Assembly (NCBI GenBank): GCA_965208125.1
Contig: OZ242320.1
Span: forward strand, 4,096,001 to 4,160,000
From: Candidatus Latescibacterota bacterium
GTDB lineage: Bacteria > Latescibacterota > UBA2968
Length of the DNA stretch: 64,000 bases
Direction of reading: 5' to 3'
The position numbers and the translations under genes are program-made. Below are positions 48,699 to 58,833 of the stretch, piece by piece; the stretch's first letter is position 1, and each line of letters opens with the position of its first letter. The notes beneath the pieces were generated by a model, which searched no databases, was not told the DNA's origin, and was given only the letters and a program-made list of their open reading frames with translations.

Positions 48699-49520
48699 TC
48701 AAACTGAGGTTTTCATTTCGAGATTCGGCGCTGCATCGCTCTGGCTGATTCCCTTCGCTGTCATGAACCGCGGTCGATCCAGGACGTTAAAGCTCCTCGA
48801 GTGCAGAGCCGACATGTTCGTGACATACGCCTCACCCGGATCCCCTGTCAGTTCCACCACACGCAGAGGATGACCCCAAACGTCGGTGGGTTTCTCCATG
48901 AATCGTTGCCTGCGATCCTCGAAGTCCCTTTTATGAATTAGATTTCGCAACCAGGTGTGAGAGGCAAAGAACCTTTGCTTTATGTGCTTGACCTTCAGAT
49001 CAAGCTGATGCGGGGTGAGCTCGCTGTAGAACTTGCACACAACGTGGTGTGAACCCTCAACCAGAACCGTGCCTCCGCCTTCCGGATCGACCTTACTCAG
49101 AAAGCAGAAAATGAAGATGTCGCGGAGCTGGTCAACATTGCGAAGTGGGTTTCCGTGCCAGTGCCAGTCGGTTGCGATGTCCCAACTTTCTCGCTGCTGG
49201 GGGAAGGTGTACAGCACAATGCCGCGATCTTTCGGGGGACGCCACCGTCCCTGACCGAGCAACTGATCTACCACTGCTGCAAATTCTGCTGTCATGGCTT
49301 CTCGAAAGATGCGAGAATTTCTCACGGATCGGCTGACTCCTCCCGGGTATTTTCGCCAGGTCGCAGGATCATCCCGCAATACGCCCTCTCTCTCCAGCCG
49401 ACGCCAGATCGTTGATTCCATCTCTGCGGCGTCTTCGGCTGTAAAGGCGCGCACCTTGACGTAGCCTCGGGTGCAGAGTTGCTCAAGGTCTTGTTCGTTC
49501 AGTGGTCCGTCAGTCGTCAT
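48699..49520 (-). CDS. PhyH-like dioxygenase (atypical HWH in place of HxD)
   Basis: GYVKV, WHWHG, GGGTVLVEGSH, ELTG..G, LHS..N...PRFM. Confidence 0.8.
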   Translation of the reverse strand: MTTDGPLNEQDLEQLCTRGYVKVRAFTAEDAAEMESTIWRRLEREGVLRDDPATWRKYPGGVSRSVRNSRIFREAMTAEFAAVVDQLLGQGRWRPPKDRGIVLYTFPQQRESWDIATDWHWHGNPLRNVDQLRDIFIFCFLSKVDPEGGGTVLVEGSHHVVCKFYSELTPHQLDLKVKHIKQRFFASHTWLRNLIHKRDFEDRRQRFMEKPTDVWGHPLRVVELTGDPGEAYVTNMSALHSRSFNVLDRPRFMTAKGISQSDAAPNLEMKTSV

Positions 49521-49574
49521 AGAATTGCCTTTCTACATCGGTGAATAAAATGAATTCGCCACTGATGTCAATCA

Positions 49575-49679
49575 TGGCAGAGGGTGTGGGGATCGAACCC
49601 ATATACGGGATATCCCACAGGATACCCGTAGCCCTCGGTTTGGAAGCCTCGGGGCCAGCACCACTGGCTCTCACCCCCT
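49575..49679 (-). tRNA. Non-canonical tRNA-like gene: 8/4 fold, long variable arm, 8-nt anticodon loop CUUCCAAA
   Basis: Acceptor AGGGGGTG/CACCCTCT+G+CCA; D-arm GCCAG-TGGTG-CTGGC; T-arm TGGG-TTCGATC-CCCA; V-arm TACGGG-TATCC/GGATA-T-CCCGTA. Confidence 0.85.
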
Positions 49680-49792
49680 GCTCAATAATACGACGATGTC
49701 ATAAAATGGAATGTTTCGGATGGGGTAGGGGAGACTACATCTTATTCGTCTCGAATGGGATTTGCATATAGGGATTCATATTCCCTGTCTTT

Positions 49793-50929
49793 CTATGGCG
49801 TGTCGATCCACCAGTGATACACGTTCGTCAAGTGCTGTTCATACGCATGCGACGCCTGCAGCAGCAGCCGATTCCGCTTGTGTGGATTCAGCGATCCGAC
49901 CACGATGCTGTTCGAATATGCTGCGATTCCCTCCTCGCGCATCCTCAAGTAGATGCCGTCATCCCAGGCAAAGCCATCTCGTGAAGCATACAGAACAAAG
50001 TGACCTTTTTCCTCTTTCTTGCCCTGCAAGAATGCACTGCGTCCGTGCATGAAATAACAGCCGTTTAGCACAGCCGTCTGAGGGTTTCGGATCTTCTTTT
50101 TAAAGTGCGCGACCTTCGGGTCGGACCAGGTCCGGCCGCCGTCGTCGCTAACCACATAGTCCATCGTGTGCTCAGCCTTGCTGTTGTATATGTACACAGT
50201 GATACTTCCGTTATCGCGTATCCCCATGGTTCCGTACGATTTCCCGATGGTGTCGAAGGGAAGTTCGCTGCGCTTCACGAACGTCCGGCCGCCGTCTCGG
50301 CTCACGTACAACTCGTACACATCTTCAGGCTTGTTGCCCAGGAAATTGATCTCGTTGTCGTTCTTGAAGTGCAACACGAGTATCTCTCCGTTGTAATACC
50401 GTGCATCGTAGAGCCTACCCCGACTGTCGCACAGTGCAGATGGCTCACTCCATGTGTACCCTCCATCCGGACTGCTGATGTATGTCGGCACCTGAAATTG
50501 CCTCCAAATGACATTGGTCGTGATGTCACACACAAGGAAAAAGAGGACGATTTCACCCTTGTCCGTCCGAACTGCCTTCTCGGCGAAGGCGGACAGTTTT
50601 TTGCTGGTCTTCCCGCTCTGCCCGGTGTCGAACAAGTTCTTCGAATAGGCAACCACGTTCCGATCGCTCCATGTCTCGCCGCCGTCTTCCGAACGCTTGT
50701 ATTCCATCCAGCCCCTGGCCGAGTGGCCCTTGTCAGACTTCTCCGGGTTGTGGCGTTCGGCGGAGCAGTTCGGATAAAAGGCGAGGATCTTCCCGTCTTC
50801 ATACTCTACCAGTGCGTGCCCGAGATTTCCACCTCTTCTTGCCGGGGCGTGATCTACGAAGAGAATCCCATCGTTTGGTGGGTTTTTGGGGGTGATTTCA
50901 TAATCTGCTTTGTTTGGGTTCGCGTCCAT
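49793..50929 (-). CDS. BNR/Asp-box (sialidase-like) protein
   Basis: Five SxDGGxTW-type boxes. Confidence 0.85.
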   Translation of the reverse strand: MDANPNKADYEITPKNPPNDGILFVDHAPARRGGNLGHALVEYEDGKILAFYPNCSAERHNPEKSDKGHSARGWMEYKRSEDGGETWSDRNVVAYSKNLFDTGQSGKTSKKLSAFAEKAVRTDKGEIVLFFLVCDITTNVIWRQFQVPTYISSPDGGYTWSEPSALCDSRGRLYDARYYNGEILVLHFKNDNEINFLGNKPEDVYELYVSRDGGRTFVKRSELPFDTIGKSYGTMGIRDNGSITVYIYNSKAEHTMDYVVSDDGGRTWSDPKVAHFKKKIRNPQTAVLNGCYFMHGRSAFLQGKKEEKGHFVLYASRDGFAWDDGIYLRMREEGIAAYSNSIVVGSLNPHKRNRLLLQASHAYEQHLTNVYHWWIDTP

Positions 50930-55602: not shown

Positions 55603-56175
55603 TCAGTCATTCAATGAAATTTTTAAGTTTATCGCTGCCAATAAACCTTCATAGTCAATCGACTTGAAGTCTGTAGTATCAATCTCAAAAATAGAGCCGC
55701 CTATATCCAACGCCTTATACTTTTCATTTATCAGAAATTCGTCGAATTGGTCGGACGTTACCAAATGATCTGTATGGCCGGGATGGCGCTCCCCAGATTC
55801 AGACCGCGCTTTGAATCTCTTAAAGAGCACACCAGCATCGGTTTTGCACAGGATCTGAAATGGCTCAAAGTCATGTCTTTCTTTTAATTCCAGAAGTTTT
55901 GGCGTATCAAACTTGGGAATAAATGCTGTGTCAACAATAAGCGATCTTCCCGCTTCAACTTGAGTTTTCAGGAAACAATGCATAAGCGCCCAACTGGCAT
56001 GGATTAACCCTACACGAAATTCTCTATCTTCCCAGCCAAGGGTATCGAAGAGGACTTCCTTAATGCCATCCTTGCTAAGAAAGGGTAGGCGGAGTTGCTT
56101 AGCCAATTTTCTCCCTAATGTTGTTTTGCCAGTACACGGAGCCCCGTTAATAATAATAAGCAAAGATTTTGTCAT
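55603..56175 (-). CDS. P-loop kinase (AAA_33-like)
   Basis: GAPCTGKTT, LSKD.IKE.LFD, RHPGH. Confidence 0.85.
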   Translation of the reverse strand: MTKSLLIIINGAPCTGKTTLGRKLAKQLRLPFLSKDGIKEVLFDTLGWEDREFRVGLIHASWALMHCFLKTQVEAGRSLIVDTAFIPKFDTPKLLELKERHDFEPFQILCKTDAGVLFKRFKARSESGERHPGHTDHLVTSDQFDEFLINEKYKALDIGGSIFEIDTTDFKSIDYEGLLAAINLKISLND

Positions 56176-58248: not shown

Positions 58249-58833
58249 TCATCTCTCCTTTTGACCTGAATCGGCAAGAAAGAACGTTCCCCTCTTTTTG
58301 AACCGAAAATTCTCATCGGGTACGATGAACGCCAGTTTATCGCATAAAAAAGAGCCAGACGGGGCTGAATTTTGGAGCCGTGCACAAAGCTCAAGGCTCT
58401 CGTCTATGGATATGAATTCAGCAATGGTCATGTGCGGAGCTATGTTGCGCCGGTGATACGCTTCGTCGGAAAATGCCGATGTTCCGTGGAGGACCTGCTT
58501 TAAATTATCGATAGGCTCTCGTGGCCTTATAGGATACGAGACGCCAGGGTGCCTGGTTGAGGCATGCAGCTTGTCGTAATAAAGCGTGAATGGCTGGACA
58601 TCAGTAATGACGTTGTTGATTTCATCGATAAGATCAGGCGTCATTTCCTGGCTCAAGGGATCTGACAAAGAGATGTGCGTCGGACAGGTGGCAGCAGAGC
58701 GGGGATCATACTTTGCTCGCAAGAGATCGATCTCCTGAGATACCTCTGGAAGGGGCATGATAAGGATGAGGCCTAATCGGTAGTCGCGTTGCCAATCTTC
58801 CCACTTTGATGTGTCTTTTACGTATGGAATCAT
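58249..58833 (-). CDS. 2H phosphoesterase (2'-5' RNA ligase-like) protein
   Basis: Two HxS/T motifs: THIS and PHMT. Confidence 0.82.
   Translation of the reverse strand: MIPYVKDTSKWEDWQRDYRLGLILIMPLPEVSQEIDLLRAKYDPRSAATCPTHISLSDPLSQEMTPDLIDEINNVITDVQPFTLYYDKLHASTRHPGVSYPIRPREPIDNLKQVLHGTSAFSDEAYHRRNIAPHMTIAEFISIDESLELCARLQNSAPSGSFLCDKLAFIVPDENFRFKKRGTFFLADSGQKER

Follow-up and report, generated by a model that had tools for sequence, protein, structure and literature searches.

The stretch of DNA discussed here is the 64-kb window C1:4096001-4160000 of a single-contig, 5.75 Mb metagenome-assembled genome of Candidatus Latescibacterota from sponges, and it is found mostly in sponge metagenome runs. 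On its minus strand, the window carries a gene for an irregular tRNA-like RNA of 105 nt, here named type V, which runs from 49679 (5' A1) to 49575 (3' A of the encoded CCA) and has an 8/4 fold, with an acceptor stem of 8 bp and a T stem of 4 bp. The reading that we favor, with intermediate confidence, is that type V is a real, self-contained and lineage-specific gene for a tRNA-like RNA of the allo-tRNA class that probably acts off the ribosome. One genus of sponge-associated Latescibacterota carries it as a module of ~210 bp in a reshuffled accessory array. Its RNA would be matured like a tRNA and subsequently charged via the acceptor end by alanyl-tRNA synthetase (AlaRS) and/or seryl-tRNA synthetase (SerRS), with the anticodon branch not being used in ordinary triplet decoding. 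Away from the ribosome, a tRNA-dependent transferase may use the RNA as a chargeable carrier of amino acids, or the RNA may act as a decoy for, or a regulator of, an enzyme or toxin that binds tRNA.

The first-pass annotation of the window had drawn the 105 nt as an 8/4 cloverleaf with an encoded CCA, a long variable (V) arm, the discriminator G73, a G3.U70 pair, a tandem G.A in the anticodon stem and an 8-nt anticodon loop. The minimum free energy (MFE) structure computed by RNAfold for the 105 nt folded alone is this same cloverleaf, which consists of the following parts:

49575..49679, minus strand: the type V tRNA-like gene as a whole (sequence; MFE cloverleaf; sub-threshold tRNA-Sec match; homologs scoring 79-128 bits against model R1, described below)
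49672..49679, minus strand: acceptor 5' strand AGGGGGUG (A1-U72, G2-C71, G3.U70, G4-C69 and onward), with 8/8 pairs invariant in type V
Between acceptor and D arm, minus strand: connector AGA of 3 nt (MFE fold)
49654..49668, minus strand: Sec-like D arm GCCAGU-GGU-GCUGGC with a stem of 6 bp, or of 5 bp with the loop UGGUG (MFE fold, comparison)
49632..49653, minus strand: anticodon-like arm CCC-GA-GG[CUUCCAAA]CC-GA-GGG, with the 8-nt loop at 49639-49646 (sequence, MFE fold)
49604..49630, minus strand: variable arm of 27 nt with an 11-bp stem, one bulged U and the loop UGUG (MFE fold)
49587..49601, minus strand: T arm UGGG-UUCGAUC-CCCA with a 4-bp stem (MFE fold)
49575..49586, minus strand: acceptor 3' strand CACCCUCU, discriminator G73 (49578) and encoded CCA (49575-49577) (sequence)

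The D-loop GG, the T-loop UUCGAUC, the CCA end and G3.U70 are all intact in type V, so that the elements for tRNA maturation and tertiary folding are present throughout and the acceptor identity set is fixed. A 7/5 fold would require an A.C pair, as the first-pass annotation had already claimed, together with a 4-nt connector. With the usual 2-base connector, the D stem would have six steps starting with A.C and the anticodon stem would become CCGAGG/CCGAGG, where the tandem G.A occupies the middle of six steps. The folding energy of the 105 nt has a z-score of -1.5 relative to shuffled sequences, 17 of 200 of which are equally stable, and the case for the fold therefore rests on the comparison with relatives and not on energy. 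The cloverleaf is taken to be more than chance because the homologs keep it with compensatory changes.

Standard detectors do not call the gene. ARAGORN reports no tRNA in the whole 64-kb window, relaxed thresholds included, and Rfam yields no match in the window at gathering cut-offs. When matches are reported by E-value instead, the tRNA-Sec covariance model (RF01852) is found at 49578-49680(-) with 34.6 bits and an E-value of 4.6e-5, below its cut-off of 47 bits.

The host does not lack any ordinary decoder that type V could replace. ARAGORN finds 49 tRNAs in the genome, covering all 20 amino acids plus selC and including Gly-UCC and Trp-CCA, in addition to the transfer-messenger RNA. The true selC lies elsewhere, at C1:1005357-1005454 (70.1 bits), and selA and selB are both encoded at C1:61-64 kb, far from type V, in line with the earlier statement that no selA or selB is nearby. 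Furthermore, the genome has one AlaRS (region C1:4021098-4022726) and one SerRS (region C1:2217403). Since the ordinary tRNA set is complete and selC, selA, selB, AlaRS and SerRS are all present, type V is an extra gene and not a missing decoder. The encoded CCA also ends all of the six ordinary tRNA genes and the selC that were inspected in this genome, while its four tRNA-Ser genes differ in sequence from type V. Partial 3' copies of the type V tRNA are absent from the genome.

The case for a genuine gene comes from its homologs. A covariance model built from five distinct type V copies (R1) gives 16 matches of at least 79 bits (79-128) in 13 of the 21 genomes of the genus, our own included, and no match of at least 79 bits in the remaining 130 genomes of a 151-genome sample of the phylum. 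The 12 uninterrupted copies reduce to five distinct sequences with 12 variable columns, of which 7 are located in stems. All 7 variable stem columns keep their pairing. Both partners are altered in three pairs, of which two belong to the D stem and one to the V stem; these compensatory pairs all come from the most divergent copy (L021), and controls with slid partners give 0. In the D stem, one further pair changes on one side and 100% of the cells are paired. In the V stem, where again 100% of the cells are paired, the compensatory change is from G-C to A-U and is accompanied by two changes from G-C to G.U. The acceptor stem (8/8 pairs) and the T stem (4/4 pairs) are paired in all five distinct sequences. 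The conservation on which the first-pass annotation had made its proposal depend is thus found, with the 8-nt loop and the tandem G.A invariant and covariation visible in the stems. The mixed Ala/Ser elements that it had pointed out, i.e. G73, the long V arm and G3.U70, are likewise present and invariant.

At two loci (L009 and L012), the tRNA is identical to that of the window over 105/105 positions, whereas the adjoining upstream 76 nt are identical at only 59/69 and 62/74 aligned positions, amounting to 10-12 changes. An unchanged tRNA beside a diverged upstream region speaks for purifying selection acting on the RNA, and this extends to its 8-nt loop and its tandem G.A. The identical 105 nt also occur in five other genome assemblies and in contigs of the RNA libraries X16 and X17, which excludes an assembly indel; together with the true selC elsewhere in the genome, this rules out a decayed selC as well. 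The first-pass annotation had stated that a decayed or misassembled selC would be recognized by a 7-nt loop on a fully paired CUCGG/CCGAG stem, and no homolog shows such a form.

The anticodon-arm pattern has 0 matches in viral contigs, and a phage origin was rejected since the three viral matches of the T/acceptor pattern are ordinary phage tRNAs of 19-28 bits. Four of 15 genome-contig matches of the anticodon arm fall in other phyla (Planctomycetia, Planctomycetaceae, Gemmatimonadales and Gaiellaceae). They are not tRNA-like by eye and are taken as chance; one of the four scores 28 bits against R1 and the other three have no R1 match.

The loop CUUCCAAA and the tandem G.A are invariant in all 16 copies of the genus, broken ones included. 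The 5' strand of the stem is CCCGAGG in 7 genomes with a full-length copy, that of the window among them, and CCCGAGGG, with one extra G, in 5. The latter form can be read either as retaining the 8-nt loop, with an internal loop of 3x2 below it, or as having a 7-nt loop CUUCCAA closed by G.A, and CUUCCAA is also the loop of the true tRNA-Gly(UCC) of our genome. A more distant relative of 101 nt (L075:1285-1385 (-) and L079:1501-1601 (-)) is found in another genus of the family, g9 (G122), and on a marine metagenome contig, the genes of the marine contig being ~71% identical to those of our genome. Its anticodon arm, CCC-A-GGG[CAUCCAAA]CUCGGG, again has an 8-nt loop on an irregular stem, in this case with a bulged A, and carries A instead of U at the second loop position, the would-be position 33. 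The relative furthermore has a 3-bp D stem, a 1-nt deletion that disturbs the acceptor 5' strand, and an upstream A/T box at the same distance as in the window. The constant part of the arm in the type V copies and the 101-nt relative is thus an interrupted stem bearing an 8-nt loop that contains UCCAAA. Formally, three codon readings can be derived from the loop: UCCA for UGGA, UCC for GGA with an extra 3' base, and CCA for UGG, in which case the additional base lies 5' of U33. In both lineages, U33 and A37 are retained under the CCA/UGG reading. Type V has the 8-nt loop and the C-U-NNNN-A-A layout of a quadruplet tRNA, but U33 is not kept in the g9 relative.

Type V belongs to a family of genes that share one chassis. 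At 31-46 bits, R1 also matches shorter irregular tRNA-like genes with the same acceptor stem and T arm (AGGGGGYGA...CRCCCUCUGCCA, with G3.U70 and G73). Our own genome has such a sister gene of 87 nt with an 8/4 fold at G000:C1:2974575-2974661 (-) (identical to L082:276-362), which is not called by ARAGORN either. Its "anticodon" arm is a 5-bp hairpin with a 4-nt loop, and the gene lies 37 nt past the stop codon of a PhyH gene. The description of type V as a stand-alone gene consequently stands for the locus at 49575-49679 but not for the genome, which holds this second irregular gene on the same acceptor chassis. In congeners (L042-L058), 1-3 sister genes of 87, 89 and 93-95 nt are arranged in tandem at the syntenic locus, between the PhyH gene and a convergent gene of 262-289 aa, and no obvious transferase is found among the neighbors of this locus. 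The arm takes the form of a 5-bp hairpin capped by a 4-nt loop in the 87-nt sisters, whereas those of 89 nt have a stem and a 6-nt loop and those of 93 nt a 6-bp stem and the 12-nt loop AGCAAAACACAA; relatives of the 93-nt type with a similar loop occur in genus g9.

The pattern AGGGGGYGA...CCCTCTGCCA, which represents the chassis, is present in 22 of the 168 genomes of the phylum, i.e. in 18 of the 20 congeners, three other genera and our own genome, with 1 match for the reversed control. In an alignment of 22 distinct sequences that had been fitted to the model, both partners are altered in 26 of 36 pairs, a number reached by 0 of 500 shuffles. For the outermost pair of the T stem, 16 sequences have AU, 4 GC, 1 GU and 1 UA, and the AU and GC forms support the 8/4 split. 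Pair 7:66 occurs as UA (9), CG (6) and UG (3). Across the paralogs, G3.U70 is kept in 20/22 distinct sequences, and A1-U72 and G2-C71 in 21/21. Within the family, the acceptor-T-D-V scaffold is thus constant while the loop varies, and this is the main reason why the loop probably does not decode codons. More members of the chassis family, with other enlarged loops, occur in family f2 and genus g5 (G155:C48:2246-2338, G155:C149:6216-6307 and G024:C632:164-259). A metagenome contig (L076:52-4497) holds 21 tRNA genes in 4.5 kb, among them a tRNA-Ser(GCU) with the same T arm and acceptor 3' strand as type V, but with A3-U70 and a 7/5 fold.

With bacterial tRNA-Sec, type V shares a 6-bp D stem, a long V arm, an 8-bp acceptor stem, G73 and a T arm resembling that of the selC of our genome; its loop equals the Sec loop CUUCAAA plus one C. 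However, the acceptor branch comprises 12 instead of 13 bp (8/4 versus 8/5) and the UCA anticodon is missing. An identity as tRNA-Sec was rejected on the basis of the sub-threshold score, the 8/4 branch and the loop CUUCCAAA, with the true selC being found elsewhere. With respect to tRNA-Ala, G3.U70, G2-C71 and G4-C69 are present, but the discriminator is G and not A (A73 occurs in the contig of one relative) and the shape is class II with an 8/4 fold. With respect to tRNA-Ser, the V arm and G73 are present, while the 7/5 fold and a Ser anticodon are not. Type V is probably neither an ordinary tRNA-Ala, in view of G73 and the class II 8/4 shape, nor an ordinary tRNA-Ser.

Among natural tRNAs with a role outside protein synthesis, the cell-wall tRNA-Gly of Staphylococcus is a non-proteinogenic aminoacyl carrier. 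Like type V, it is an extra tRNA-type gene, dispensable for decoding and potentially chargeable. sufD, SufB2 and other four-base suppressors are reportedly canonical 7/5 tRNAs with 8-nt anticodon loops on a regular 5-bp anticodon stem. Type V shares with such frameshift-suppressor and engineered quadruplet tRNAs the 8-nt loop and the C-U-NNNN-A-A layout, but it is natural, 8/4 and has an interrupted stem. The likeness to aminoacyl carriers extends to the tRNA-like tRNA-Other of B. cereus, which is cited in PMC5389517. In contrast to these carriers, no linked transferase was found for type V.

The closest known kind was described by Mukai et al. 2017 (PMC5389517) and comprises allo-tRNAs of 8/4 or 9/3 type as well as irregular tRNA polycistrons. 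Type V resembles allo-tRNAs in its 12-bp acceptor branch split 8/4, its Sec-like long D stem, its long V arm and G73, and some allo-tRNAs also have G3.U70. Both are found as sub-threshold matches of the tRNA-Sec model, are distributed patchily beside accessory genes and include inactive or degenerate members, and the tandem arrays of irregular relatives that characterize the polycistrons are seen here in the congeners. With regard to the features by which this text delimits allo-tRNAs, the 8/4 branch, the Sec-like D arm with a long V arm as well as the Ser/Ala identity elements are present, but a 7-nt loop with a triplet anticodon is not. Going by its description, allo-tRNAs have defined triplet anticodons, as opposed to the 8-nt loop and the internal loop in the stem found here and the 4-, 6- and 12-nt loops of the sisters. 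The hosts named there are Clostridia, Proteobacteria and Acidobacteria, not Latescibacterota, and the neighbors are toxin-antitoxin genes instead of the detoxification-type genes observed here. A selC* tRNA-Cys was rejected, as this requires U73 and a GCA or UCA anticodon (PMC5389517), whereas type V has G73 and neither anticodon. No report of an allo-tRNA in Latescibacter was found in the literature searched, and a closer relative may stand in the supplements of PMC5389517. What is new with respect to allo-tRNAs is the 8-nt loop, the interrupted stem, the host phylum and the context.

The gene moves as a small unit. The segment 49543-49755 (~210 bp), in which the tRNA is flanked by 76 nt on its upstream and 32 nt on its downstream side, recurs between different neighbors, and the surroundings of the tRNA are as follows:

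49680..49755, minus strand: upstream part of the module with a -10-like TATTAT at 49685-49690; it moves with the tRNA in all contexts
49543..49574, minus strand: downstream end of the module with a TTGACA ahead of the next gene (comparison of contexts)
48699..49520, minus strand: open reading frame (ORF) of 273 aa, the commonest downstream partner, encoding a divergent PhyH-family dioxygenase (35-37% identity to PF05721-bearing relatives)

The -10 box proposed by the first-pass annotation is there, 5 nt before A1 (49690-49685), and TATTAT or AATTAT is kept in all type V copies; a full promoter around it is not, as a sigma-70 consensus scan gives 0 sites in 49300-49950. The block of the 273-aa ORF and the tRNA (48717-49755) is intact in several genomes, but the module is also seen without this ORF and beside at least five different neighbors. 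The ORF itself has no Pfam match.

Additional information comes from RNA libraries. Contigs of two metatranscriptome libraries (X16 and X17) agree with type V at every position of the tRNA. A third library (X18), which comes from a second study, contains a relative with C>T at 49578 on the plus strand, which corresponds to A73, and with 15 bases missing downstream; judged from its sequence, the combination of A73 and G3.U70 would complete the Ala identity set. Within 49100-50100, the contigs of X16, X17 and X18 leave 49344-49480 and 49725-49835 without coverage, and these gaps carry no weight. Contigs of library X19 lie outside the tRNA.

Taken together, type V is probably chargeable with Ala or Ser, given that G3.U70 with G2-C71 and G4-C69 forms an AlaRS signature, the long V arm and G73 form a SerRS signature, and the allo-tRNA experiments show such tRNAs to be active, with allo-tRNAs containing G3.U70 having inserted Ala or Ser in E. 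coli (PMC5389517). In the same source, other allo-tRNA groups are described as translationally inactive and linked to accessory genes. Ordinary triplet decoding by type V is not expected, because its 7-step stem contains an internal loop and ends in a loop of 8 nt, and routine decoding is further called into doubt by the sister genes, the polymorphism of the stem and the dispensability of the gene. Decoding would also not be needed, as Gly-UCC and Trp-CCA are already present. Since the same acceptor/T/D chassis carries 4-, 6- and 12-nt loops, the acceptor-T minihelix would be the conserved working end and the loop a variable module, and type V and its sisters probably form a small RNA family that does not read ordinary codons. 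The first-pass annotation had offered a +1 frameshift decoder, an Ala/Ser missense tRNA and a non-translational mimic as options. None of these is shown, but the paralogs with 4-, 6- and 12-nt loops, the one-G difference in the stem (GG in 7 and GGG in 5 genomes), the 7 congeners without the gene, the broken copies and the A at the would-be position 33 of the relative make a dedicated decoder, whether quadruplet or missense, appear less likely than the non-translational option.

Several observations weigh against this reading. A strong type V match is lacking in 7 congeners, 6 of which are single-contig genomes, and among the remaining copies several are broken: the sole copy of G015 has a 5' deletion that removes the 5' acceptor strand, G011 and G007 have a 26-nt insertion in the T loop, the 3' third is replaced in G006, G014 retains only a 35-nt fragment and G012 carries A58G. 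The type V gene is thus dispensable. Furthermore, a linked tRNA-dependent transferase was not found, with no FemAB match in the genome and one LPG_synthase_C-like ORF ~3 Mb away. The invariant loop and its quadruplet-suppressor layout would equally be explained by a decoding role, and the energy z-score reaches only -1.5. The RNA evidence consists of three short contigs (184-235 nt) from two studies that span 49481-49724 and may reflect DNA carry-over; they reach upstream of the TATTAT box and downstream into the first 30-40 nt of the 273-aa ORF. These contigs are a weak hint of a discrete transcript and show presence in RNA libraries, not a mature RNA. The 26-nt insertion itself is a hairpin, and two type V copies (L026:1128-1259 and L027:327-458) and a sister gene (G020:C1:5894304-5894417) carry it at an identical position of the T loop, following GGGUUCGAU. 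It belongs to a dispersed REP-like (repetitive extragenic palindromic) hairpin repeat with compensatory changes in its stem, which is present in 21/21 genus genomes with 1-21 copies each (up to 3 mismatches; control 0).

An active decoding role, which we hold to be unlikely, would make type V either a natural quadruplet tRNA whose UCCA reads UGGA, or a missense tRNA inserting Ala or Ser at GGA (UCC) or UGG (CCA). The invariance of the loop CUUCCAAA in 16/16 genus copies, the retention of an 8-nt loop in the distant relative and the layout C32-U33-NNNN-A-A, as in engineered four-base suppressors, would all fit such a role. Moreover, 8/4 allo-tRNAs work on E. coli ribosomes and the yeast mitochondrial tRNA-Thr(UAG) uses an 8-nt anticodon loop (PMC5389517 and PMC7609411, respectively). 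Nevertheless, the loop is presented on a 7-step stem with a tandem G.A and, in 5/12 genomes, a third unpaired G, the relative has A and not U at the second loop position, the sister loops on the same chassis cannot decode, and the normal tRNA-Gly(UCC) and tRNA-Trp(CCA) are available. As the gene is absent or broken in 8/20 congeners, no essential gene can depend on it. The specific proposal of a natural chromosomal UGGA reader, i.e. an Ala- or Ser-charged 8/4 tRNA with the loop C-U-UCCA-A-A on a mobile accessory module, appears highly improbable; if it were true, sponge symbionts would shift frame, or recode Trp or Gly codons, in particular genes on demand.

A minor but tangible chance is given to a decaying relic, in which case a duplicated Sec/Ser-type tRNA gene without present function would have stayed similar among genomes through close kinship and recombination of the module. 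Its patchy distribution with several broken copies, its position in a hypervariable array, the non-canonical anticodon arm missed by ARAGORN and the Rfam cut-offs, and the 1-nt deletion disturbing the acceptor stem of the g9 and metagenome relatives are all consistent with decay. Difficult to reconcile with it are the 105 nt with 0 changes next to a segment where 10-12 of 69-74 aligned nt differ, the pairing kept by all stem substitutions with three compensatory pairs, and the intact D-loop GG, T-loop UUCGAUC, CCA and G3.U70. That the sequence would instead act in cis, as a processing or stability signal of a neighboring mRNA or as a recombination site that drives the shuffling of the array, we consider very unlikely. 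Such a role is suggested by the co-orientation with the neighbors, the frequent block with the 273-aa ORF, the RNA-library contigs passing from the tRNA into this ORF and the position of the paralog 37 nt after a PhyH stop codon, but the module also occurs without the 273-aa ORF and beside at least five different neighbors, many breakpoints of the array lie at gene boundaries without tRNA-like sequence, and neither an integrase in the window nor partial 3' tRNA copies in the genome are found.

To our knowledge, there is a single earlier description of allo-tRNAs and irregular tRNA arrays, from soil Acidobacteria, Clostridia and Proteobacteria. Type V adds a second, independent case from another phylum and habitat, the sponge-associated Latescibacterota. 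It comes with closed genomes of several species, natural knock-outs and a graded series of sisters with 4-, 6-, 8- and 12-nt loops on one acceptor/T chassis, and this series makes the choice between decoder, aminoacyl carrier and decoy directly testable. Should the 8-nt member turn out to decode, nature would have a four-base decoder; otherwise, the family would be a clear case of tRNA scaffolds taken over for a task away from the ribosome. Engineers of orthogonal tRNAs may likewise find the chassis of interest.

The module is located in an array of ~30 kb (about 31700-61400) of co-oriented small accessory genes of detoxification type on the minus strand. Their products include GNAT acetyltransferases, S-adenosylmethionine (SAM) methyltransferases, MFS transporters, a glyoxalase/bleomycin-resistance protein, a NUDIX protein, a P-loop kinase, a 2H phosphoesterase, PhyH, a sulfatase and a BNR protein. 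The order of the genes is reshuffled among congeners, with breakpoints at gene boundaries (start and stop codons), many of them without tRNA-like sequence. Of the 5 Phage_integrase matches in the genome, 0 are in the window and the nearest lies ~208 kb past its end, which agrees with the earlier statement that no integrase is nearby. The array is not a classical integron, because the window is without an integrase and several junctions, at 1-10 nt from start and stop codons, leave no room for attC, for which no formal search was made.

The PhyH family (PF05721) is very largely expanded in our genome, with at least 154 matches in 5.75 Mb compared to none in 14 control genomes. A functional link between type V and PhyH dioxygenases is a weak, post-hoc lead; because of the number of these matches, nothing is built on the PhyH neighborhood, and the 273-aa PhyH neighbor and the PhyH protein preceding the paralog are barely alike. 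The same array also contains, on the minus strand, a gene of the 2'-5' RNA ligase/2H phosphoesterase family (58249-58833) and an AAA_33 P-loop kinase gene (55603-56175). Both families include RNA-end healing enzymes, and these two neighbors could point to a link with tRNA damage or repair.

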